NCBI GenBank assembly: GCA_010093705.1
Contig: MU006097.1
Span: 569,905 to 633,904 of the forward strand
Reading direction: 5' to 3'
Source: Patellaria atrata CBS 101060
Lineage: Eukaryota
DNA: 64,000 bases
The notes under the pieces were generated by a model. The model did not search any database. It saw only the letters and a list, made by a program, of their open reading frames with translations, and was not told where the DNA came from. This document shows, in pieces, positions 25,723-53,633 of the stretch. Position 1 is the stretch's first letter, and every line of letters starts with the position of its first letter. A program made the position numbers and the translations under genes.

Positions 25723-28108
25723 ATGGCTGGTCCACAAGAGAAAGCTGGAGCCACCAGCAATGGCGGCTTACGGCGTACAAGCACTACGGCTGCAGCCATT
25801 AGACGAGGTGATCTGAAGATTAGTTCACCTATACCAATATCGATACCTGGAAAGTCCGAGAAGCTAGCTACGCAGCCAGCAACAGCTGAGATACCTCCAC
25901 CGGTCACGGAAGGGTCGGTGGAAGGATCTAATATAACAAATGATGAGAGTGTAAGGGAAGACGTGGTGCTCAAGGCGGAGGAGATAGAGCCAGTAGAGAA
26001 CAATCAGACGCCTCATGTATTACGACACAAAAGATCCTCACTGGACATAAGAGATCTGGGGCACAAGCAGGAAAGGGCAGAAGACCCTAGCGTAAAGAAA
26101 AGACATACCACCGAACTGGCGTCTACCTTCAATACCACTCATCCGTTCGTTCCAACGACCCCAAGAAGTCAGACGAGTATGGACATGAGGAAACCCCAAA
26201 AGGTTGGATCATTGAAAGCAGTACTTCGTAAGATATTTCGTCGAAAGTCAAAATCACCGACCGCAGCTCGGCGCCAGTCCCGTGGTCATGACTATCATCG
26301 AAGTGTGAGTTCTTAGATGGGCATCTGCTCGATTTTATGGGCAATGGCTAATTCACAACCAGGATCCCGGCGTGTTAACGACAGCCCCGAAAGAAACGAT
26401 CAAGGAAGAAGAAGAAAAGGAGTCCTCACCTAACTCACGACGTATCTTGTCTTTGCCCGTAAAGGAATTGACACCCATCAATCCCCTTGGCTCTCATCTC
26501 CCCTTCCCTATGAATGTCAATGCTCCACAGCAGAAGAGTCCACCACATGAGTACCTACCATTCGATGTTAATGCCACTCCGACTATTCGCCAGCGACGTG
26601 CTACTCTTCCCAGTGTAATCCTGAATTCAGCCGATGTGGAGGCTCTAACAGCAATTTGGGGGGATTCGGGCGCTCACGTTACCGCCGTAGAAGAGCAGAG
26701 ATTATCCCAGATGGACTCTGAAAAGCCGATAGGAATAGCTGTTAGCAGCAATACCAGCTCCAAGAGGAGATCACAGAGTGCGGGCGCTCTCCGTGATCTC
26801 TCAAAGGAACACGCGATCCCCAGTCTTCAGCGCCGAAGAAGTGCGGAGATAAGATATTGGCGATCGAACGCTGCTCACCGTTCTCGAAGTGTCAGTGTGT
26901 ATAGCACTGAAATGCAGGAACGACGGGATAGTCTGAAGAGTTTGTCTCCTCACGACCCGACTGACGATTCACCGCGTGGTCGGAGTTCAGCCACCACAAC
27001 GGGGAAAGAACCGTCACCATCAATACCCATAGAAAAGGTACAGCTACAAGCATTCGATTTCGGCACACTCGACTCAGCGCCGGAACGAGAATCCGGGCAT
27101 CAAGATGAAACCTATGCTTCCCCAACATTCAGCCTCGAAGACCGCATCACAAACCTCGAAAAGCACCACTCCTCTCTCGAATCCTCCCTTCAGCGCCTCA
27201 CAGGCCGCTCCCACCGTCAAACCATCATCCTCGAAAACGCACCCAAAGGCCGCTCTCGCGAACGTCGCGACCGCAGCACTTCCTCCTCTCCCTTCCGCTC
27301 ACGTCTTCTAAACCGCTCTTCATCTCCTAGCCCAAATATTTCGGAGCAACCCCTAGGACTTGACCCGGGCCCCGAAATCTCCGCACCCGCAATTCCGCCA
27401 TCAGAAGTGCCTCACAACCTTACGTTTCTAACTTCTCCAAGCACCAGTAATACTTTACATCATTTACACCACGGCCTCGGCTTCGCCGCCTTCCCGCCCG
27501 CCTCCTCAGCCTCAGAAACCTACAGCGCGTCCCAACCGCACAGCTCACCGCCCGCTCTCAGCTCCCCCGCCTCAACCTCAAACCCTCAGACCGTCGTCCA
27601 CAGCTCGTCACCTCTACAAAATTCCTCCCCCAGCCAGCAGCAGTCGAGTTCCTCAGGCGGAAGCCCGACCCAGCAACAACTTGCCGCGCTAAGCATACTG
27701 CTTAGCCATGAAAGGGCAGCGCGCAAAGCCCTCGAGGCACAGGTCGGCCACCTGCAGACCGAGATGTACGAACTCCGCACCGAGCTCGGCCGCCTCGTCG
27801 CCGGTTTACGCGGTGCGGCCGAGAGGGCCGTCGGCGCCCACCCCCATCCACATCCCCATACGGCGGAACACGCGTATCCCACCCCGGACTCGACCCGCAT
27901 CTTGCACCCTTCCCACCACGCGGAAACGGGCTGGGAGGAGCGCGAGAAGAAGACGCTGAGCCGGTTTTCAAGGGAGACGGAGGGGAGCGGGAGCATGGAG
28001 GATGTTGGGACTGAGAGGGGCAGTGAGGGCGAGGGCGAAGTGGGGAGCCCGGAGGTCTTTGAAACGCCGAGGGAGGAGAGTGGGGGTTTCGTTTATGGGG
28101 GTGAGGGG
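25723..28108 (+). CDS. Uncharacterised Ser/Pro-rich fungal protein with C-terminal coiled coil; 3' end falls in the assembly gap
   Basis: Two long ORFs (25702-26316 and 26372 to the gap) joined by a GTGAGT..GCTAAT..CAG intron (~26304-26362); coiled-coil-like LLSHERAARKALEAQVGHLQTEMYELR. Start is 25702 or 25723. Confidence 0.7.
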
Positions 28109-28335
28109 NNNNNNNNNNNNNNNNNNNNNNNNNNNNNNNNNNNNNNNNNNNNNNNNNNNNNNNNNNNNNNNNNNNNNNNNNNNNNNNNNNNNNNNNNNNN
28201 NNNNNNNNNNNNNNNNNNNNNNNNNNNNNNNNNNNNNNNNNNNNNNNNNNNNNNNNNNNNNNNNNNNNNNNNNNNNNNNNNNNNNNNNNNNNNNNNNNNN
28301 NNNNNNNNNNNNNNNNNNNNNNNNNNNNNNNNNNN
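28109..28335. other. Assembly gap (227 N)
   Basis: Run of N, entered from a G-rich stretch. Confidence 0.99.
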
Positions 28336-28886
28336 TAAATTGTACCATAGTGCATAGGGCAGGTCGGGTTTCGTCCATGAGGCGAGTGCTTAATGTGATT
28401 TTTCGTTTGTGAACGTGGTGGGATAATGTGATTGATTGTTATTGTGATTGTGAGGTGGAGAAGATGTAGGTGGATGAATGGAACGGTATATGATCCCCCT
28501 TCCCCTCGTCTCAGAATAGATGACTGAGGTGGTATATTCATCCCGATTCAAACCGAAACCCAAGATGCAGGTATATACTACTTGCTACTGTTACTGTTAC
28601 TGTACAAGCCCACATCGCTCGATATCCAACCCTCCAAAAAGTTCAAAAATGCAGACATCTCAGCAAGAGGTATACTCCACTCCCTTTGAGCTGTGAAAGA
28701 AAAAAAGGGAAGGGAAATAGAAAAGTACAAGAGGGGAAAGTACCACGAACATCCGCAAGACTCCATACACCCGTACGCACGCCCACGAAAGAGGAAAGAG
28801 GAAAGAAGCCGGGGGTATCCACCCAAACCAGAAACTCCAAGACGACACCACTCCTCCATCTCTCATAATCTCTATCGTTTTCCCAC

Positions 28887-36547: not shown

Positions 36548-37648
36548 TTAGACAAATGGTTTCAAAATACTCGAAGAAAAATTGAGGAACGAGGTTTTCT
36601 TGGACGTAGTTTTCTTAGACGAAGTTTCTCGGTGTTTGATTTGACACTTTGGACGGTACAGTCCAGCACCCAAAAACTGTACCAAGCTAGCCGGTGTTTC
36701 CATTACCAGCTCAAAAGCACATCTTAACAACCAATCCAAACTTATATAGATGACAGTTGTTGCGCTGGTTATGTGCCGAGTATCTTCCATATTGTACACC
36801 GTTTCTATGCTATTTTTTTGCGCTTTGCTATCTTTTAAACCATATTGCGCTCTATTTATCTTATGCTCCGAAAGCTCAACAACCGGGAGATCAATCAAAA
36901 CCCTAACATCCATGGGCGTTACTTTCTCTTGGTCTTGTGCTTCCAGGTAGACACGAGTAGAAATATAATTGTCAATCCCTTAGAGTTCCAAAGGCTTCTC
37001 TGGCCAGCCTCGCCATCCGTCGAGTGTATCCCACTTTTCTGTTCAGAATGCGCAGGGGGCGTTGAACGCCTTTATTGGTCCCTCTATGCGGTAAATCCGT
37101 TCAACTTCTATCTGGAACTTCTTTTTGCCAAACTTAACGCGAATCTTCGGTTTATAGGTCGCTTCAAGGTATTCAACATAAAGTCTTTGGCATACGGTGA
37201 TGTGGTCTGTAGCAATATCGGTGACCTCGACGATCATGGAAAAACATGGTGGGTAAGTGGGTTCGTATGCCGCATCCGCTGTGGTTAACTCGTAAAATGT
37301 CTTGATTTTTGCCCATATTAGTGGTTCATCTAGGTCTTGACCATAGAAAATGTTAGCAGTTATTGCGTATAGGATATTTGGCTTCATCATGGCTTCTGTC
37401 TCTTCATCTGGGCTGAAGAGTCGCGCGGTAAGAACTTGTCCAGTTGGCCAAGCAGGTATAAGCAGTTCCATACTCGTCCAGTTGACTATATGCGTGTGAT
37501 GGCCGTCACTCTTCTTTTCGTCCCATGTTCGCAGAACCATAACATGTGTGCCAATGGAAGGGGGAACGGTGGAAGCTTTCTTGAGGTCATCCTTTGCGCT
37601 TTTATACAGCTCATCCACCGTAGAGTTCAACATTGGTAAAACTTCCAC
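36548..37648 (-). pseudogene. Orphan intronless ORF broken by two in-frame stops
   Basis: ORFs 37043-37648 and 36548-36913 are in the same frame, separated only by TGA 37043-37045 and TAA 36980-36982. Confidence 0.45.
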
Positions 37649-41665: not shown

Positions 41666-44029
41666 TCAAGCGTACAATTTCCCAGGAGTAGGAGTTCGAA
41701 GGGGTCCGCTAGAGAAAGAACAATGTCCAACTTCACCATCTAAGGTCGGAACCTCTCCCCATCCAATTGAATTGGAGAGAGAATCTGAGCTCTTTTCCGG
41801 AGGATGGCATGCAGCCGCAATAGCGAAACTGCAGCTTCCTACGAGCGGCATCCCAGGCTTGTAACGCCTTCGGGAAGTCACAATGAGCGCGACGATCATC
41901 AATCCTCCAATGATAACAACAAAAATAATTGCAATCGGTGAGAAGCCACATGTTAATATCCGGTCGATTGGCACTTCGTGTGGATTGTATTTATCGATTT
42001 TAACGAGGAATAAGCTTTGAGAAACGAGCCAGTGCATGAGGCCGGATACCATGACAAAGGGGATTCCGTATCGGTAGGGGAGCTGAAGGGCATATGTTGA
42101 GCGTTGCGCGCCTTTCGGAGCGGAGACTCGAAGACCTTTACGCTCGTGAATAAACCCAGACCATTCTTCTGCGGCGAGCATGCAGGTGTAGAGACCGTTG
42201 TAAGTTAAATATATGAATGAAAAGATGGTCTGCGGTAAGTTGGCTAAGAGTACCACTCCAAGGAGAGAAGTAGGAAACGCGCGGTCATCAGTAGAAATCA
42301 TGGTCCCTGTAGAGACGCCTCCGAATCCTAAGTCCCAAAGAGATTTGATGTCCTTGGGACCAGCAGTGGCTTTGATGGACCAGCCGAGCATCCAGACACA
42401 TACAATGAAGGCAATGAATGTTCTGTAGGAATGTTAGTCAGGTTCATTTTGCGAACATGAGATACTCACAATACTAATGTCGTATACCATCGTTTGCGGC
42501 TAATAGCCGCTATCCAGTGCTTCACTGGCGTCTCATATGGCCGTGGTGTTTCTTCCTTTCCGACCTCTGTTTGGTACGTGTCAATGCTGGTTTTTGTAGC
42601 TAAGCATATTCCTCTGGTATTATCGTCGGGACGCTCCATGAAAGAAGCCACGGCATCTCCAAGAGTGAGCAAAGGAGAGTCTTCCAAACTGCCGAAGGAA
42701 TAAACGGACGCTACCATCGCTGCTGCTTTTATCAGATTACATATAATGACGATCGATAGTATGCCGATATGAAATTGGACGGTGCACTTCTCTTCGACAG
42801 GCTCGCTGAGACAATATTCCACTGTCGTTGTCGCAGGTGCCCACTTTTCGGGATGAGCTAGGAGAGCATTCATTTCCGCTTTCGAACAAGACTCCTTATC
42901 CATTTCCTGATCAGATGTGATTCTATTCCCATAGCACACCCAGAGAGAGTCTGATACGGATGCCACATCCATGAAAAACAACGAATATCCATCAATGAAA
43001 CCTGGATATGAACCATTCTGAAAGTACCATGGCTCTCCGGTACCATTGATTCCATTCTTCGTATTACCAACCATTATAACAGCTTTCCGGGAGGTTATGA
43101 ATTCTTTACTAAATTCTTTGATGCAGTTTTCGTTGTCTAGAACGTCCAGTCGCCCGGTACTGAATTTTGTTTGAAGCCTTTTGATGTAATCCCACCCATA
43201 TGAGGGTTCATCATAGTAGGTATCGTAATATGTTGCCCACCAATCCTGGTAGACCGGACAATCACGTAAGGTGTCATTGTTCCAGTTCGGTTCGCCACAG
43301 AACGGATCTCTATTGTTCAAGAACTTTTCATCAACTTCTAAAAGGCTCGTTGCATAAGCAGATGTTGAAACAAATATGGCAGAGTTATATCTATGAATAA
43401 ATATTAGACGGCTAGCTAACTGAGAGATGCGATTTACTCACAAAAGATGTAGAGGTACAGACGAGATCCCCAGAGCCCACCAGAGCAACTTTCTTCTGCG
43501 ATTAACATACATCAGATTCCTTACGCTGGGTATTCCTATATCCATCCATTGGCCTTTTGCATGGGATATATCAATGTCTCCTCTTGTCGGGGCGGAAAGG
43601 CATTGCATACAGTAATTGCTACCACTGAGCAATATACTGCTTAAAGCATTTATTGCTAAATGCATCCATAGACTTGTGTTCTTCGTCTGATCGCAACTTC
43701 CTTGGTATAGAGTCCCAATACCATTGGAAATGTTGTACCTTGTTCCGGCAAAGATCGTGAAGCCAAGGTTGAGGAGCATCGAGATTATAGCGCACGTTGC
43801 GAATGCGATAGTTCCACTCTTCCATCCTGAGAAGCTCCTATCTAGGTACTGATCAAATCTAATAAACGGATTTCTCGATCGTTTAGACTCGGATGTAGGT
43901 TGAGGGTAACTAGGGATAGATGAGTAGACCTTCGAAAGTATATACAGCGCAATTCCATGCAACCAACCTCCAGTCACCATCCGTATCTGATCGGACGGCC
44001 TCATACTTCTTCCTCTTATGCTTATACAT
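41666..44029 (-). CDS. Multi-pass fungal membrane protein (DUF6536-like)
   Basis: LHLAINALSSILLSGSNYCMQCLSAPTRGDID..GQWMDIGIPSVRN, PLLTLGDAVASF, LANLPQ, GAQRSTYALQLPYRYGIP, SCSFAIAAACHP. Exons match ORFs 43438-44040, 42466-43320 and 41666-42391; start inferred via a short first exon. Confidence 0.8.
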
Positions 44030-45424
44030 GATATCTTCACGCTTTATATCCAGTCGTAAGTTTTTATCTCGTATTGAGGGTAGTGAGCTTCAATGACACG
44101 CGAAACGAATACTCCATGAGAGAATGATGAAAATGTTTAGATTCAAAGTGAAGGAAGGAAACGACATCATAAAAGTACCTTAAATTCCATCCATACTGGG
44201 ATACGGTTCCTTCATGTGTTAAGACCGATGGTGCTAGGGTGTATCAGTATGAATAAGTGGCTGTGCCATACTTCAAATATTGTTGGCGCTAGGTAACCTT
44301 ACAGTCTTAAAACGTCGGTGATTTACATGTTGATCTGAGAGATCCTAAATGGGGCCAAAATCGACCAATAAACTGTCATATAAATGCGGCTTATTCCCAT
44401 CTTCTATATCAGGCACATACACTTGGCGACTGGAAACTCGCTTTATAATATCCCAAACTGGCGGTGCTCGAGCTGGGTCGTGGGCTTTTAGTTCTACGCC
44501 ACAGCGCGTCACGGGGAGGGGATTCATCGTGGTGCTTCTGTTATCGAGACCGTACCTTTACACGAAATAGATGAGATGTTGAAATGGTTGGCCCTATCTT
44601 TCTTCTAATATGTGCTTCGCGCAAATATTCCAGTTATTTAGGGCTGTTTTCATCACCAAGAACTAAGGTAGTTCTACGGAGGTACGTCAAGGTAGTTCCA
44701 GCTCAAATGGCTCGTAGAAATACCGCTGGATAAGGTAGACTCCAGGGGCGAAACAATTTTATCGTTGCTAAACGAACTGCCTTTTAGATCTATCAACAAT
44801 GAATCAATTATCTGGGAACCGACCAGAGCCATAACAACCACCAGTGGGTAATCTCTGTGCCGCAAACTGTGTGGCAAAGGTCACGACGCCCAGCTTTGGG
44901 GATGAGAGTCTTTACCAGTTGATGAACTCAATATCACTCGTAGCATTGACCTATCGAAGAGTTCAAGTTTGCATCAACCATGTCCACAGCCCTATCATGC
45001 AAGATGTCCTTTCGCAACAGTTTCATCAAATAAAGAGCCCTCAAATGTATCTTTGGATTATGTCTGTGACCTACTTGCAGAGGGCCCTAGTATTAAACCA
45101 TCAAATAGATTATGAACTCTTGATGGGGGCGATTCGGTAATTCGTCAGCGCACTCATACTCTTTCCAATTGGCATCAATCAAGAACACGCATGAGCAAGA
45201 GCTTGGAACATCGAGCCTCGGAAGATGAAGTGGTAGTGATCCACTCAACGGGCGTCTCCTTCGACGTCGTCGTACACTCATGTACTAAATGCAGAGTTCA
45301 GCTCGTGCTTAGCTTTGATCCCAGCCCTAGACCGCTTGCCGGCCATGTATAATTTGTGAACCAAGGGGCCTGAGAAAATTGGTTTCTAGTTTCCACATGG
45401 TTTTCTCGAAACTCCCTCGCCGTC

Positions 45425-46237
45425 ATGGCACATCTCCACCACCAGCACCGGCGCAACTCTATCCCTCTTATAGATATAAATCAGGGTCGACCCAAGGCAA
45501 AGGCAAATGAATACGGACATATGATACTGGATGGGTCTTCTAGAAATATATTAGGGTTTGTAATCTTCATGACTGTCGACTATCTTGCTAACTTCACGTT
45601 AAGGGATATTCATCACTACACCAGTAATATAGGAATGAAAATGGATTGTCAGCACATTGTAATTATTGTTGCTATAATCGCATTTGTTATTGTCCTCGCC
45701 ATTGTTCTTGTCGCTCTAGCAGTCACTGGACATTTGAACAACAAGGCATCCCCGGCTCTGCCTCTCACCCTTTCTCAAGAATTACGGCAGACAACTCCCT
45801 GGGGATCTTCTGCAACAACGACATCAAGCGAAGGAATATCAGGGGACCCGTTATCTTCTACCAGTATACAAAAATCTCTTTCATCAACAGTGTCCAAGAC
45901 GCTACAAGAAATGCCCGTACGCACCATAAGTTCATCAACCATCACTAAAACATTAGACCCTGAGTCCGAAGCTTCACTGGAATCAGAACCGCCGGAACCT
46001 TCATCGCACACTTCACAGCCTCCTATGTCCACCAGCATTTTTGGTGTTACGGCACCTGTAATGAGTTATTCAAAAGATGGCACCTATAGTTATTGTACAC
46101 CATGGTCTGGCCTTGCTTGCCCTGGAATGAAGTGCAATGCTAATACCTGCGAAGACCCATGGATGTGCGTCGATGGACGGTGCTGTACAACTTCGTGTAA
46201 TAGGGGCACCACAACGAATCTCGATCCTAGATGGTGA
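45425..46237 (+). CDS. Putative type II single-pass receptor-like protein: N-terminal HET-s-like amyloid R0 motif, TM helix, Ser/Thr stalk, Cys-rich C-terminal module
   Basis: No signal peptide. In-frame 48-nt intron 45556-45603 (GTTTGT..GCTAAC..AAG) gives NEYGHMILDGSSRNILG|DIHHY. Hydrophobic IVIIVAIIAFVIVLAIVLVALAV (~45656-45725), then an S/T/P-rich region, and 8 Cys in the last ~50 aa. Confidence 0.75.
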   Translation: MAHLHHQHRRNSIPLIDINQGRPKAKANEYGHMILDGSSRNILGFVIFMTVDYLANFTLRDIHHYTSNIGMKMDCQHIVIIVAIIAFVIVLAIVLVALAVTGHLNNKASPALPLTLSQELRQTTPWGSSATTTSSEGISGDPLSSTSIQKSLSSTVSKTLQEMPVRTISSSTITKTLDPESEASLESEPPEPSSHTSQPPMSTSIFGVTAPVMSYSKDGTYSYCTPWSGLACPGMKCNANTCEDPWMCVDGRCCTTSCNRGTTTNLDPRW

Positions 46238-46918
46238 AACCACGGACAGCGAATTGAAGTTTACTCAGATACAAGATGAACTTAAATGTGTCTTGAGAAT
46301 ATTTTGATACGCTTTAAATCAGTGCTTTACTATATATAGACATATGATGCTCTTTACCAAAAGCAGCGAGGTTTGTGCTTCGATAACTAGAAATTAGCCC
46401 TTTTTCTCATTTGTTGCAAAGGCGTCAAGGCTTTACCCTTTGCTTTCCACGGAGTACGTTACCTACATTTAAACATCTTCCTGTACGCGCCCCCAGATGA
46501 TTGCATATAACCGCTTAGATTTTTACAGGTAACAGCTCTCCGAATCTCAGCTCTTGGCCGCAACTGATGGGGCTTGATTACAATATATATGCTAATTTCA
46601 TCATATACTCAGAGCGAATCATTCATGAGCGTAAAATTCATATGTAACTGTGGCTGTAAACTGTATTACCCAAGGCAGATAAGACAGTAGGGCAATGTTT
46701 CATCCCATCCACTCTCACCGCCCGGAACTGGTGGTAGACCGCCAGTATCATAGGTTGGGCTTAGTAGTTCCGCCTCAGTCTGTTTTCATACGATTCCAAC
46801 GATAGGATTACCTATATACGGTCAGTTTTTGTGACCGCAAAATACCTCTCTTATCCTCTTCCAAACCCCCATTACCCCTCGACTGCGGATTAGTTCACTT
46901 TGTCCAGTTCGTCTCACC

Positions 46919-47964
46919 ATGTCCGGCCTCGAAGTTATGGGCGCTGTGGGCAGCGCAGGACAGATTCTTCACCTGACTACCTACCTGTACACCACTATCC
47001 GAGATCTATACAACGGCGCTCAGAGCCAACGCTTCGCTCACCATGCAGATAGCATCAAAGAAATCAAAGACGTTGCTAAGTTAATCACGGATACACCCTC
47101 TCTCTGCAAGCCGCACAACTCGCACGAGCTCGAAAAGATACTAGGTGGAGTTCTCTATTCAGTGGTCAGGGTGGAAAGGAAAGTGAATAAAGCGTTGGTA
47201 GAGGTAACTGCGAAGTCAAAGAAGCGGTACTTCAAAGCGGTCTGGTCATCGGATCGTGAAACCAGCATTCTGAAGGAACTTACACACCTTGAGAAGAAGA
47301 AGACTACGCTCGTACTTTGCATCTTGACGTCTATTGGATGTGCGGTTGTAAATACTGAAGCTTCGGTTGAGGACCTTAAGGAAATGTTACGAGGGACAAC
47401 TTCTGCGAGGTTCAGGGCAGCTCATCCGGATAACTTAGATCCAGTAGCGAATGCAGTAACTCTGAACAGAAACCAGGTAGGCGATTGTAACCCCACCCCC
47501 TTTTATAATAGACCAGTACTCTGAACCCACCGTAGGGCATTATGATCCAGGTCGAGAGTGATCCCAGCACTATGGAATCCACTCTAAGCACGTCGTCCAG
47601 TCACTCAAATATCTCTCACGGCCAGGTCCAGTTTCAACAGATGCAAGTCTGTTCTAGTACGACTCGGCCAGTGGAGGACGCCAGACATGGGAAAGTAAGC
47701 GGGATCAATGAGACAACCCGTCTCGACGAAAGAGATGATGATGACCACAGAAAAGACGGTAATTCCTACAGAAATCTGAAGCAGTGTGACGAATCTATCC
47801 AGGTGATAGGGAACGTGGGCGGAAGGGGCACAGGAGTTGCGGTTCCCCGTCACACATACCAAAATATCAAATCCGGTGGTCAGAGCAGAACAATCCTTGG
47901 TAATGCTTCTGAGAGTGCGGTTAGAGATCTCTGGGCAGCGTATCCCGTATTGATGCGGAAATAA
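46919..47964 (+). CDS. HeLo-like/SesA-like effector with C-terminal two-repeat HET-s-related amyloid motif (HRAM), ~328 aa
   Basis: N-terminus MSGLEVMGAVGSAGQIL...LTHLEKKKTTLVLCI is typical of HeLo-like/SesA helical domains; intron 47477-47535. C-terminal repeats NSYRNLKQCDESIQVIGN and HTYQNIKSGGQSRTILGN align with HET-s R1/R2 and are followed by a Trp. Confidence 0.8.
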
Positions 47965-48944
47965 TGTCACCTCTTCGGTTGCGGTTGGCATTCCTCAGTC
48001 ACTGTACGCTTGCACAACACCTACAAGCGGACTTTAATTCAACGATATAGTGTACCTCGATCATCTGCCCGCTTAAGTGTTTCGTACGGTTGGGCATTAC
48101 TTGTACGTTTCCAGTTTGCCGTACAGGGGTGTTGGACTGCATCTTGAGAGCGAGCGTACAGTATGCAAAGAATACGAGATACGGGGAAGATATCTGCTAT
48201 GTCGTTCTCAATCTTTATAATTTTTCGGCGGTGGTTTTTTGATGTTATATTCGTCTGCAATATCGTTCTGAAATGGGTCTCCACGGCCTCCAACCATATA
48301 AGTACCTCTTCGATTGATCCTAATAAAGTACCTTAGCTGGATTCAGGTCAAAGAACAGCGTCATGCATTACCATAACCCGGTGACCGTACTCGCTTCAAG
48401 GGCTAACAACATCATGAAATAGGGTTATTCTTTGTATCTCTTACATTCCAAGTAATGAACTCATATCTTTAGGTTCACACAGATATGACACGTCGTGCAA
48501 CGTACTCAACTATAATTCACTGTCGTGTTCTTCCGGCCGTAAGATAATTAGATCCGATAGCGCCAGCCAAGAGCGGGAGCGGGAAGTTTTAGGGGCGGAA
48601 CGGGAGGATATCACTCCGTTCGATTATAGAGTTCGTCCGAAATGCATTATGCTATATGTAGTAGGGAAAGAAGAGTTGAAAGGTATAAAGAAGAGGGTGG
48701 AGTGAATCAGGGGCAGATGGATAAACCATAATCTTGCAGTATTTTAGCTATTGGGCAGCCTTCTAAAACACAAATCAACATAATGTTTCAACTGAACTGG
48801 AATATACAAAAAGATCCCTCATAACTATTGGCACAAGCGTGACCATAACCTTTCTGGGTACATCACTGGTACAGTAAGCATTTCCGCCCTTTTATTCTGT
48901 CTCCCTCCACATTCTAACGAACACTATCATTTCTCCCACCATCG

Positions 48945-49439
48945 ATGTGTTGCAAATCTCCCGAAGCACTTACACGCAAATAAGCGCGTCTTGAGGCCCG
49001 TCTCACCCGAAGGATTGCTAGATACGACCTCAAACACGCTCCTCACATTGCCTCCTCACAGCCGCTCCCTTTCCCCGAACACTCATATCCCTACACTATT
49101 ACACAATCCGCTCAGACTCCTGACCCCTATCCCCAATTTCAGACTGGAAATCCTCGCTCAATCAACCTCGCGCGAGGTGGAGTTGGGAGCGGATGTTGTA
49201 AACGAAATAGGGCGCAGTGTAGAAGGGAGGAAAGAGGGTTGGTGAGGTGGTTGTTGGGGATGTGGATCATGAGGAATGAGGGAAACACTCAAAAATATTT
49301 GAATTCTGGGGACAGCTGGGTAGAGAGAACAGAAGAGAGAGATAGGCAGAGGGAAGAAAAGAGGAAGGCGACGAAGACGACAGATGATTTGCCGACATAT
49401 GAGGAATCAGAAGAACTGAAGGGAAGGAGAACAAACTAG
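48945..49439 (+). pseudogene. Small orphan ORF with a premature stop at codon 13
   Basis: MCCKSPEALTRK*ARLEARLTRR...GLVRWLLG...DDLPTYEES; single TAA at 48981-48983, otherwise open for 164 codons. Confidence 0.4.
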
Positions 49440-51306
49440 GAAATGATGACGAAGCGCTATAGAGGAGATAACCAGGGCACGATGTTGAAGTTTGAACATA
49501 GAAGGAAACAAAAAAGCTCTCCGATAAGCTAATTTAAATTCGAATGAACCCTCATTAGTATCAAGATAGTCAGCTCTGAAGAACGAAATGTAAAATAAAC
49601 TGCAATACCTCTTGCGACCTTGATCATTGAGCCAGAAACTTATCTTTCCTCTTCACTTCATTATTACCCTATCATCTACAGGTACACCTGTCACTTGCAC
49701 TACGATGCTGCAGGTGTCCCAATTAGAACTGTAGGACATTTTCTTACCACCCCATTTTCGTCGAATAAAACAGAAATATGTCATTACGGGCCGTGTATTC
49801 GCATACGATATCCAGAAGTTACTCACACTCTGAAGATAGAACTTAAGGGATACGCTCGTTACTACACAAGTCCTGTACAGCCCGAAGGATTTTGAAATCG
49901 TCTTACCGTGCTGTTTAATCTTATCCACATACCGCGGACTTACCAGCTTCCAACTTGACGGTTCAGTCACATCATATTCATTTTCTCTCTGTATCGTCTA
50001 TGGCAATAGGAGGCTAATGGTACTCGACAATAGGCATCTGACTCTTGCTAAGTAGACCGTGGACTTCGGATGAGTATGGAAACAATGGTACTAGTCCAAG
50101 TGTCGGCATAGTCGGTGAAAGAAACTGTTTTAAGACAGATCAGAGTCCTGCCAGATCATCTTTAATATAATTATATCTCACTTGATCATCACTAACCCAC
50201 ATCTCGTTGGCTACACTTGAGGTATCGATCTTCAAAACCCTACGCGACCGAGGAATAGACTTACCGCCGAGGATCGTCATGGCCTTCTCATGCGCGTTGC
50301 TCCCAGAGAGCAAGACATTGGGCAGCACGGCGTCGAATATGTCAATATGATGCTATTATCCAATTCTCGAGGGTTATGGGTGCAAAGTGATTGGTCCTCA
50401 ACGAGAATTCTCATTGCTCGAGCGAGGTGGTGGCTCTGAAAGATGGTTATGACCGCGGACAACGACCAAAATGAGCCGAAATCCGATGAGAAACAAGCAA
50501 CCTCTTGGTTTAGGGTAACATACAAAGACTTCACCGTCTAATAGGGAAGCTGAAAAGCGTAGAACTCAAGAAGAGGTTGCAAAAGAGCATGGCTCCCCTA
50601 TAGCAGGTGCCACGCGACGTTGACCCCATGGGGTATCCCCCGCAGCCAAGAGAAAACCTCGGCGTAGACGGTGCTTAGTCTTAGGTAAGCACTCCAACCA
50701 CCAGAACCAATATGAACCTCTATTCTACTCTCAACATCATCATGCGACCGCTTCATTATTGAACTGTACTGTCAGTTCATTTAGATTATCTATTCAAACT
50801 GCATATATTCCCAGTAGTGATGTCGTGAAGAAAGCTAGGTTGAATTCCCAGCATGTCTCCCTTCGCTCATTCCCGTCCATCTCTCAATCAATCTTCATCT
50901 CCTTTTTCATCAATCTTGATTCCGAGATCTCTTTGCTCTGCATAGACCGATTCCTGGTACTGTCTTTATCTTAATGTCATTATGGTTGGGGTTGACTAGC
51001 TCTCGGGTCAGCAGAAGCTTTGTCCACTCGATACCGCTTTCTCTTGATATTCAGTCGTCCTTTCCAGTACCTTCAACAGTACAACATGTACTCACCTCAG
51101 GATTTGACACCCCTGTTTCTATGCCTCACAACCAGCGAACCCTAGTATGGGCTCAACTGTCGATGCTACATATCTTTCCACGAGACCTCCCAAGAGTTAG
51201 ACCTGGTATCTCATCCCTACAAGAGCTGGGTGTCAATCATTATTTAATCCCCCATAATCTGCTCTCGAGGGATTTAGTTCAACAGTTTTAGATATTGATC
51301 CTGAGA

Positions 51307-53633
51307 ATGTGGATATCATCAATAGCTTGTTTAGTGGCGCTGACTAGCTTCAGCAATGCAGCCTCAACTTTCTCCCCTGCAAGACCACCAGCAATCCCAC
51401 TTGCTGTGAGGTCTCCCTACCTCAGTACATGGCTACCTGCGGGCCGTGACGCTGAGACTTCTGGGGAATTATCCGCTGGAGTCTGGCCTTCTTATTGGAC
51501 GTAAGTCCCCGAAGTTCCCTTCAACAGAGTAGTGTATTAATCCTTCTTACTAGTGGGGATGCAACAGCGTGGACTGGCTTTGTTCGAGTCGACGGTAGAA
51601 ATTACAGATGGATGGGTGGCGCTGATGGTGATGGGGCTACTCAGGTTGCCTTCAACTACACATCGACTCAGAGCATCTTTACCTTTCATGTCGGCGACGC
51701 AGTGGAGCTAACCGCAACCTTTCTTTCACCCTTGTATCCAAATGATTTCAAGCGACAATCACTCGTTTTCTCTTATCTTCATGTTGATGTCGCTTCCCTT
51801 GATGGGAACACACATGATGTTCAAGTTTATACAGACATCTCTGCCGGTCAGTCTCCTTAGTTTTTTCTTCAGTTTCTCAAGTGAACGGACATTGATACTT
51901 CTTTTAGAGTGGGTCTCAGGCGATCGTACATCGAAAGCAACTTGGGACTACGGGACCACTGGAGATGTCGCCTTCCATAAGATTTCAAAAGCTGCTCCGG
52001 TTTCTTTTGGTGAATCCAGAGACCAAGCGGAATGGGGCAATTGGTACTATGCCACAAATGCAGGCGATGCTACTACTTACCAGTCAGGTCCTGATGTTGA
52101 CGTTCGTGGGGCATTTACCGATGATGGGAAATTGAAGAACTCCAAAGACGAAGATTTTAGAGCAATCAATGATAGGTGGCCAGTCTTTGCCTTTGCTGTG
52201 GACCTTAGTTCTGTCGATAGTTCTGGAAGTTCTGCCCTCTTCTCAATTGGGTTGTGCCAGGAGCAAGCTGTGCAGTTCTCCAGTAGGAACGGATACGGTC
52301 CATCTCCCGCTTTGTGGAAGAGCTATTTCGAGGATGATCTTGCTGCATTATCGTTTTTCCACGGTGACTTCGAAACTGAGCTTCGGGATGCATCTACTTT
52401 CGATAGAAAAGTTGCAGATGATTCCATCCGTGCCGGTGGGGAAGATTATTTGACAATCACATCGTTAACTGCACGGCAGACCTTTGGAGCAACACAACTA
52501 ACGGGCACAGAAGACAAACCTTATCTATTCTTCAAAGAGATCAGCTCCAATGGTAATATGCAGACTGTAGATGTTGTCTTTCCATTTCATCCTTTCCTCC
52601 TTTACGCAAATCCTCAGTTACTGAAACTGACGCTGGAGCCTCACTACGAAATTCAGGAGTCAGGACAATATCCAAATAAATACGCTATGCACGATATCGG
52701 CACTCACTTTCCTAACGGTACTGGTCATTCTGACGGTGCTGACGAACCTATGCCTTTGGAAGAATGCGGCAACATGATCATCATGACGCTCGCTTACGCG
52801 CAGAGGGCAGACGACAACGATTATCTAGGGACCCATTATGATATTCTCAAACAGTGGGCGGAATATCTGATCGAAGACTCACTTTATCCTGCAGAACAAC
52901 TTTCAACCGATGACTTTGCTGGGCATCTCGCGTAAGTAGCGTTTGACTATTACTCCGTTCATGTCCTTACTATGGCTCAGGAATCAAACCAATCTTGCAT
53001 TGAAAGGGATGGTCGGGCTCGCTGCAATGTCGGACATAGCAGCACGTAGTGGACATGACGATGATGCTACCCGATACCTCGATACAGCCAAAGATTATCT
53101 CGCGCAATGGCAGGATATAGGGATTAACAAGGACGCTACTCCTACCCACACGGTCCTCAGTTACAATGACCGCGAGTCTTGGGGTGTGTTCTTAATGCGT
53201 CAGGTTATTTATAAATGACTAATCACTCTAGGCATCCTGTATAATCTGTATGCTGATAAGGAACTTGGACTGAACTTTGTTCCTCAAACGATCTATGACC
53301 AGCAGAGTAATTTCTATCCAACGGTGATGCGTGAGTATGGTGTACCTCTTGACACTCGCCACACGTACACGAAGAACGACTGGGAACTTTGGGCGGCCGC
53401 AGTAGCATCGGACGACACGAGGGGCATGTTCATCAGCAACCTGGCTGCTTGGATCGATGAGACTCCGTCGAATCAGCCCATGACAGATTTGCTTGAAACT
53501 GACACTGGAGCGTAAGTACTGTTCGTTATTCGTAGGGAAACCTTTAGCTGATGACTCTTTCTTTAGTCAACCTGGACTGCAGTTCAGAGCCAGGCCCGTG
53601 GTTGGGGGTGCGTTCGCTCTCCTCATACTCTAA
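51307..53633 (+). CDS. gtaA: Secreted glutaminase A (GtaA family)
   Basis: Signal peptide then STFSPARPPAIPLAVRSPYLSTW; KEISSNGNMQTVDV, MPLEECGNM, QLSTDDFAG, YGVPLDTRHTYTKNDWE, FRARPVVGGAFA; five introns. Confidence 0.92.

Follow-up and report, generated by a model that had tools for sequence, protein, structure and literature searches.

Can a fungal amyloid signaling pair be run by a membrane protein in the place of a nucleotide-binding oligomerization domain-like receptor (NLR)? The question is raised by two adjacent genes, P0001 and P0002, in a 64,000-nt window of the genome of the wood-rotting fungus Patellaria atrata CBS 101060; the window is the whole stretch of DNA analyzed, and coordinates below are positions in it. 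P0002 ends in two repeats of the HET-s-related amyloid motif (HRAM) type, R1 and R2, and P0001, located 681 bp upstream, carries one matching repeat, R0, in its N-terminal part. Like HET-S/NWD2 and HELLF/FNT1 of Podospora anserina, the pair consists of adjacent genes, one for an effector in which a helical killing-type N-terminal domain is joined by a disordered linker to two pseudo-repeats of 21 residues that are followed by an aromatic tail, and the other for a partner with one N-terminal repeat that is nearer to R2 than to R1. Unlike in those systems, the partner is a predicted type II membrane protein of 254 amino acids (aa) with no NACHT or NB-ARC domain and no WD, TPR, or ANK repeats. 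The reading that we favor, tentatively and at a little under an even chance, is that P0001 and P0002 form an HRAM amyloid signaling pair in which a single-pass membrane protein would replace the NLR as the receptor-side partner.

A repeat shared by neighboring genes

The initial annotation had described two same-strand genes, 681 bp apart, with a common motif. Re-splicing and the protein database bear this out, as the spliced lengths of 254 and 328 aa agree with two hypothetical proteins of P. atrata CBS 101060, P0001 and P0002. The P0001 intron (48 nt, GT..AG, with a CTAAC branch site) is in frame, and the reading frame remains open without splicing; that of P0002 is 59 nt long. The spacer between the genes gives negative codon log-odds in all three plus-strand frames.

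Viewed as an 18-mer, the motif occupies residues 28 to 45 of P0001 and residues 262 to 279 and 292 to 309 of P0002. Alignment of R0 with R2 returns exactly the 7 identities in 18 residues that had been claimed (Y3, G10, S12, R13, I15, L16, and G17 in 18-mer numbering), and the ungapped BLOSUM62 score is 31 for R0 against R2 and 18 for R0 against R1. It could be supposed that this similarity arose by chance and that the genes are unrelated neighbors, and the same score of 31 is indeed attained by a single unrelated 18-mer on the minus strand (37443-37496) out of the 60,406 six-frame 18-mers of the window. Taken alone, the pairwise likeness is only suggestive.

Against chance stands a profile built from other species, a 21-position matrix of 11 repeats from five effectors, with the Patellaria repeats excluded. 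One relative, P0005 (339 aa), was left out because each of its two repeats lacks one residue in the interval from the conserved Tyr to the conserved Gly. The profile gives 29.3 bits to R2, 22.3 bits to R1, and 18.8 bits to spliced R0, which sets R0 10 bits above all unrelated 21-mers in the window (best, 8.5 bits among 54,039). In the fetched proteins, none of the 5,089 positions that lie outside a repeat region attains the R0 score (maximum, 2.3 bits), and a single one of 20,000 shuffles of P0001 residues 1 to 58 attains it. Scanning the window with this profile found no fourth repeat. Unspliced, R0 scores 11.9 bits; splicing generates its conserved Gly19-Asp20, the G-[ND] of the motif, which supports both the P0001 intron and the R0 motif.

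The HRAM pattern (PMC4518210) consists of G19, hydrophobic residues at positions 5, 8, 10, 16, and 18, R or K at position 15, N, Q, or H at position 3, a loop of 6 to 18 residues, and an aromatic tail. R0 fits it at 8 of the 9 positions checked (N3, Y5, M8, L10, R15, L18, G19, and D20) and departs at position 16, which is polar, as in R1 and R2. R1 has N3, Y5, L8, I18, G19, and N20, and R2 has H3, Y5, I8, R15, L18, G19, and N20; the 9-residue loop between the two is within the pattern. The departures are Q/S at position 10, Q/T at position 16, and I at position 15 of R1. In the patterns of PMC4518210, H3 of R2 recalls HRAM3 and Q16 of R1 recalls HRAM5. With H3 in R2, N3 plus Q16 in R1, and a position 16 that is polar throughout, the repeats cannot be placed cleanly in any of the five HRAM subfamilies, and in this they are unlike those of HET-S/NWD2 and HELLF/FNT1.

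The hope that PF11558 would recognize the motifs was disappointed: neither that model nor the other Pfam amyloid-motif models matched the P0002 repeat region or the R0 exon at E ≤ 10, a further difference from the two Podospora pairs and a point that could be counted toward chance. The missing match is expected, however, because PF11558 recovers only 38 of 155 HRAM effectors (PMC4518210). The motif, moreover, is N-terminal, lies in the immediate neighbor gene, and agrees with the HRAM pattern at nearly every position checked. Together with the profile scores, this makes a chance resemblance very improbable. As judged from sequence, R0 does belong to the effector repeat family, and the proposal that all three motifs belong to one HET-s-related family is sustained by the cross-species profile and by weak sequence and structure matches to HELLF, given below.

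What supports P0001 as the receptor-side partner is that R0 occurs in a single copy, N-terminally, in the adjacent gene, and is closer to R2 than to R1. The r0 motifs of HRAM1 and HRAM4 likewise tend to be closer to R2 than to R1 (PMC4518210). A recent DNA duplication linking R0 with R1 and R2 was considered and rejected. R0 and R2 share 27 of 54 nucleotides and no nucleotide repeat joins R0 to R1 or R2, which indicates that their likeness is maintained at the protein level.

The effector and its relatives

A phmmer search of 1.84 billion representatives with P0002 returned 30 proteins at E ≤ 1e-3. Of the 27 that were fetched, at least 6 (P0003, P0005, P0007, P0010, P0012, and P0013) have two or three such repeats near the C terminus; P0003 is from Lepidopterella palustris, P0005 from Phaeosphaeriaceae sp. 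PMI808, and P0013 from Piccolia ochrophora. P0010 (309 aa) has three HRAM-type repeats instead of two. The relatives share the N-terminal start MSGLEV.G..(G/A)S..Q, in which M1, E5, G8, A11, and Q15 are conserved.

This start, a helical domain of ~160 residues, and the SesA matches of its relatives are what P0002 has in common with fungal SesA (PF17107)/HeLo-like proteins. The initial annotation had called the domain HeLo-like, which is not supported in that form. Of 28 relatives, 10 match SesA weakly at E ≤ 1, with 1.7e-6 as the best value, and 4 still do so at E ≤ 1e-3; Helo_like_N (PF17111) is matched at E ≤ 1 by just 1 of the 28, so that the family is nearer to SesA. Unlike SesA/HeLo-like proteins, P0002 itself matches no Pfam family, and the curated SesA cutoff (26.3 bits) is exceeded by one relative in 28 (P0016, 28.6 bits). 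For another relative, P0039 of Glonium stellatum, the source record gives the name NACHT-NTPase and P-loop NTPase N-terminal domain protein.

In the AlphaFold2 (AF2) model of full-length P0002, computed from the alignment of the family, helices span residues 3 to 164, residues 172 to 257 are disordered, and strands fall at repeat positions 4 to 6 and 15 to 18 in both R1 and R2 (Table 1). The block-mean predicted local distance difference test (pLDDT) value is 89 to 91 over most of residues 261 to 320. In this model the strand register is as expected for two stacked rungs, that is, for a two-rung β-solenoid like those of the Podospora effectors, with the caveat that solved HET-s-type structures may have taught AF2 these folds.

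HELLF is the best match, albeit a weak one, both by sequence and by structure. Searching PDB sequences with a profile of the P0002 repeat region gave the HELLF prion domain 6EKA as the best match, across both repeats (E 0.25). When the repeat region was modeled alone (pLDDT 68), the top Foldseek row was the HELLF fibril, again 6EKA (E 0.31; TM score, 0.48/0.60), and HET-s entries 2RNM, 2MUS, and 2LBU ranked 3, 5, and 10 among 14 rows at E ≤ 10, none of which attains E 0.001. The C terminus of P0002 contains aromatic residues, a kind of tail that HRAM effectors are described as having (PMC4518210).

Fold searches with the full P0002 model returned generic helical bundles only, another respect in which P0002 is unlike SesA/HeLo-like proteins; the best Foldseek E value was 0.18, and the VIA Z of 12.4 to the vinculin tail is within the noise for helical proteins. 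A kinship of the N-terminal domain family to α-actinin spectrin repeats (PDB sequences, E 3.6e-6) was rejected as probably reflecting long-helix bias. From the sequence comparisons and the model, P0002 is probably related to SesA and bears a double repeat of the HET-s type.

The motif carrier and its surroundings

The N-terminal 58 residues of P0001 are basic and His-rich and contain R0. They are followed by a predicted transmembrane helix, with a Kyte-Doolittle 19-residue mean that peaks at 3.82 at residue 62 (centered near residue 70) and windows above 1.6 that start at residues 53 to 73. Next come a Ser/Thr-rich stretch and a Cys-rich C-terminal module. The layout of helix, Ser/Thr stalk, and Cys-rich module had been proposed from the start, and hydropathy and composition agree with it. 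Pfam likewise confirms that the R0 carrier lacks an NLR domain, as it shows no NACHT, NB-ARC, TPR, WD, or ANK in P0001.

P0001 is thus predicted to be a single-pass membrane protein. Its Ser/Thr stretch and clustered cysteines would be typical of an exposed, glycosylated, disulfide-bonded ectodomain. The N terminus is probably cytosolic (type II), because the Ser/Thr stretch and the compact eight-Cys module are ectodomain-like and there is no signal peptide.

Atlas searches with whole P0001 gave no usable feature match, and all structure rows had TM scores of ≤0.25. For the Cys-rich part, the best feature score was 0.76 and TM scores were ≤0.41, all below the bar of the tool. PDB sequence searches returned noise only (E 0.33 and 3.7), and neither these searches nor Pfam detected an enzymatic or pore-forming domain.

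In yeast cell wall stress sensors of the Wsc1/Mid2 type, a Cys-rich head on a Ser/Thr-rich stalk is connected through a single membrane helix to a short cytoplasmic tail with Rom2-binding motifs. P0001 has the same building blocks in mirrored order, its predicted cytoplasmic tail being N-terminal and its head C-terminal. Unlike these sensors, it has no WSC domain match and no signal peptide, and its tail holds an amyloid repeat instead of Rom2-binding motifs.

An NLR was looked for among 82 of the 109 window open reading frames (ORFs) of ≥100 aa, the other 27 overlapping scanned ORFs in other frames, and among 100 of the 117 ORFs of ≥35 aa at 43.9 to 51.7 kb, the other 17 being the pair's own ORFs or overlapping the effector gene in other frames. 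Neither a NACHT or NB-ARC domain nor a relic of one was present in these 82 long and 100 short ORFs, so the ORFs scanned show no NLR over the 45 kb upstream and the 16 kb downstream of the pair. In contrast to the NLR partner of known HRAM pairs, P0001 is without NACHT, NB-ARC, and WD/TPR/ANK, as are the scanned ORFs of the window. A search of longer proteins with the repeat-region profile returned 14 proteins at E ≤ 10, all of them effectors, and no single-repeat protein attained this threshold. Because P0001 itself misses E ≤ 10 in a database of such size, that search is silent on the existence of NLR partners.

The initial annotation had regarded this architecture as undescribed in fungi, and the literature agrees as far as it was covered. 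The full text searched, which took in few subscription journals, names only NLRs as receptor-side carriers of amyloid motifs in fungi (PMC4518210, PMC9815663, PMC5485727, PMC7889193, PMC12881547, PMC13506858, PMC12258605, and PMC12261475), and the trigger in each fungal system described there is a cytosolic NLR. What is new is a candidate fungal HRAM pair with a predicted membrane protein as the single-repeat carrier, known from one genome.

Alternatives, related loci, and a conditional mechanism

Several observations weigh against P0001 as the receptor-side partner of P0002, and the first group concerns R0, the topology, and the reach of the NLR scan. R0 retains the charged residues K1, E4, D11, R15, and D20, whereas NLR r0 motifs are usually depleted of charged residues (PMC4518210), and it begins at residue 26, whereas most NLR HRAMs begin at positions 5 to 9 (PMC9815663). 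The positive-inside signal around the P0001 helix is neutral, and since the flanking charges are roughly balanced, it is the character of the C-terminal part that the predicted topology depends on. It is also possible that an NLR with a matching R0 lies outside the 64-kb window; distant NLR-effector pairs exist, for example, 95 kb apart in Sphaerobolus (PMC9815663).

The true trigger might accordingly be an NLR or another nucleator elsewhere in the genome. P0001 would then be a second client, namely, a membrane dock recruiting the fibril, a co-effector, or a damping single-repeat cap, a role that can be likened to that of Pirk/Rudra, which damps the Drosophila IMD pathway. Precedents exist in the activation of two motif proteins by one NLR (HELLP/SBP/PNT1 and SesA/SesB/HET-eN [PMC5485727]) and in the single-copy HRAM-like motifs of effector-side PNP_UDP proteins (PMC9815663), and 57 of 155 HRAM effectors have no adjacent NLR (PMC4518210). 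The charged residues of R0 would repel each other in a pure R0 stack, and the NLR scan was confined to the window. On the other hand, known clients bear the motif C-terminally and receptors bear it N-terminally (PMC4518210 and PMC9815663), as does P0001, which also has no enzymatic or pore-forming domain, and the scanned flanks hold no NLR. On balance, we regard a trigger elsewhere as somewhat unlikely.

A second group of contrary observations concerns P0001 as a gene. A word-index search at E ≤ 0.01 (948 candidates) recovered no homolog, only P0001 itself. Codon usage supports it weakly, at 0.06 to 0.08 bits/codon compared with ~0.2 for the effector. The two sequencing runs that contain the locus are probably DNA, with contigs that carry no joints, and that P0001 is expressed is something we infer. 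These same points would suit a relic, in which an nwd2-like NLR gene has been lost except for its 5′ end, now the R0 exon, which was joined in frame to a young or unrelated ORF, and P0001 is silent or has no signaling role. Such an origin is unlikely, given that a 287-codon open frame (stop to stop) at 47% GC is improbable without selection and that, even with a margin smaller than that of the effector, the annotated frame has the best codon log-odds in 5 of 5 P0001 segments. The coherent membrane-protein layout of helix, stalk, and eight-Cys module, the absence of a NACHT or NB-ARC remnant from the 100 short ORFs around the pair, and the restoration of the motif's G-D by splicing argue in the same direction.

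Related loci bear on both sides. A metagenome scan with a close alignment of six effector sequences yielded three loci, of which two, L002 (13.7 kb) and L003 (18 kb), are syntenic relatives. Each encodes a homologous effector (dN/dS, the ratio of nonsynonymous to synonymous substitution rates, 0.35) and, on the same strand, a 180-aa ORF with a single HRAM-type repeat; in L003 this ORF lies 2.9 kb upstream of the effector. It starts with MAH, has a Pro/Gln-rich middle and a short hydrophobic C-terminal end, and matches no Pfam family. Its dN/dS of 0.25 between the contigs (9 synonymous and 8 nonsynonymous changes; binomial P, 0.006) indicates purifying selection. An NLR domain is absent from all 94 ORFs of ≥75 aa in L002 and L003, among which XRN and RabGAP-TBC were the sole domains recognized.

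The presence of a 180-aa non-NLR carrier near a homologous effector in a second lineage suggests that non-NLR carriers of an N-terminal single repeat may recur beside this effector family. The initial annotation had suggested a search for recurrent adjacency of effector genes to genes that combine a membrane helix with R0. A non-NLR single-repeat carrier is there in these loci, but its maximum hydropathy of 1.04 means that it has no membrane helix, and P0001 remains an orphan. This belongs with the observations that count against P0001 as a receptor, as do the facts that the 180-aa carrier is unrelated to P0001 (best E 0.20) and that its repeat is closest to those of an adjacent repeat-only ORF (scores of 63 and 52), not to those of the SesA-type effector (19 and 28).

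Both loci hold two such repeat-only ORFs, which consist of little beyond a double HRAM-type repeat. Conservation between the contigs is seen for one of them (dN/dS 0.2), whereas m1, the second, has many indels (63% identity, 87 gap columns), and this decaying ORF is the one that the single repeat of the 180-aa carrier most resembles. The repeat-only ORFs may be prion-only proteins or decaying copies, and the loci look evolutionarily unsettled. A decaying copy next to the same effector family lends some weight to the relic explanation of R0.

If P0001 is nonetheless the receptor-side partner of P0002, signaling might proceed as follows. P0001 would insert with its N terminus inside (type II), so that only ~13 residues would separate R0 from the inner membrane face and the Ser/Thr-rich stalk and eight-Cys head would be outside the cell. 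An extracellular or cell wall cue acting on the head and stalk would gather several P0001 molecules in the membrane plane and so bring about nucleation, which needs several of them together because a single repeat cannot form a two-rung unit alone. The stacked R0 repeats would template R1 and R2 of P0002 into the β-solenoid, and the SesA-related helical domain, thus freed, would attack the membrane and cause cell death. That P0001 is a cell surface sensor of this kind, for damage, a microbial product, or contact, and that its lateral clustering turns R0 into an amyloid nucleus switching on a SesA-type executioner, is possible, if doubtful.

Functional precedents are known outside fungi. In Drosophila, PGRP receptors have RHIM-like motifs in their cytoplasmic part (PMC4262963), and the PGRP-LC/PGRP-LE/Imd system resembles the P0001 model in having a single-pass receptor with a cytoplasmic amyloid motif, a sensing part outside, and a motif-matched downstream partner (PMC4262963 and PMC13506858). 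The Patellaria pair differs in having an HRAM, not a cRHIM, and no PGRP domain, and the Drosophila output is NF-κB, not death; the comparison is an analogy only, without homology. Bab/Agp (BASS11) of Escherichia coli ECOR25 likewise has its receptor-side amyloid motif on a non-NLR sensor, and the small helical effector encoded next to it attacks membranes (bioRxiv 10.1101/2024.11.07.622273), but this system is bacterial.

Should P0001 act as proposed, no amyloid death pathway described earlier in fungi would share its independence of NLRs or its course from the cell exterior inward, and it would be a convergent counterpart of PGRP-LC/Imd. A membrane-anchored trigger would tie prion-like death signaling to cell surface events and widen the inputs of fungal regulated cell death. 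Non-NLR nucleators may also explain part of the approximately one-third of HRAM effectors that have no adjacent NLR, as the carrier in L002 and L003 hints. With only 254 plus 328 aa, the two genes would provide a compact system for studying how membrane proximity nucleates functional amyloid.

Table 1. Positions of features in the P. atrata window and, in the last two rows, in the related metagenome loci
Feature	Position	Strand	Details
R0-carrier gene P0001, 254 aa	45425..46237	+	Exon 1, 45425-45555; intron, 45556-45603; exon 2, 45604-46237 including stop
R0, single HRAM-type repeat, P0001 residues 26-46	45500..45610	+	Spans the intron
Predicted transmembrane helix, ~residues 60-84	45650..45724	+	Kyte-Doolittle
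Ser/Thr-rich stretch, residues 87-205 (119 residues)	45731..46087	+	37% S+T, 12 Pro; from composition; no Pfam family
C-terminal Cys-rich module, 8 Cys in residues 208-242, tail to 254	46094..46234	+	No Pfam, PDB-sequence, or Atlas relative
Spacer, 681 bp, P0001 stop to P0002 ATG	46238..46918	.	No family at E ≤ 0.01 in short ORFs
Effector gene P0002, 328 aa	46919..47964	+	Exon 1, 46919-47476; intron, 47477-47535; exon 2, 47536-47964 including stop
Helical N-terminal domain, residues 1-164, SesA-related	46919..47410	+	Conserved family start
R1, first HRAM-type repeat, P0002 residues 260-280	47755..47817	+	Predicted strands 263-265, 274-277; block-mean pLDDT 89-90 over 261-280
R2, second HRAM-type repeat, P0002 residues 290-310	47845..47907	+	Predicted strands 293-295, 304-307
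C-terminal tail with aromatics (LWAAY)	47908..47961	+	Aligned with AFF/FF tails of relatives
180-aa single-repeat ORF	L003:3604-4146 and L002:6687-7229	+	HRAM-type repeat at residues 17-37, 22.8 bits
Two repeat-only ORFs	L003:5161-5535, L003:2750-2995, and matching ORFs in L002	-	No killing domain detected

The gene next upstream of the pair (41666-44043, minus strand) encodes a DUF6536 protein (E 1.5e-52, N-terminal ORF), and we saw no link between it and the pair. The ~3.4 kb downstream of the effector (48000-51450) contain ORFs without a recognizable family and are followed by a glutaminase GtaA-type gene from near 51456. Farther upstream, an assembly gap of 227 N (28109-28335) falls within a long plus-strand ORF (26309-28357) of no clear family.

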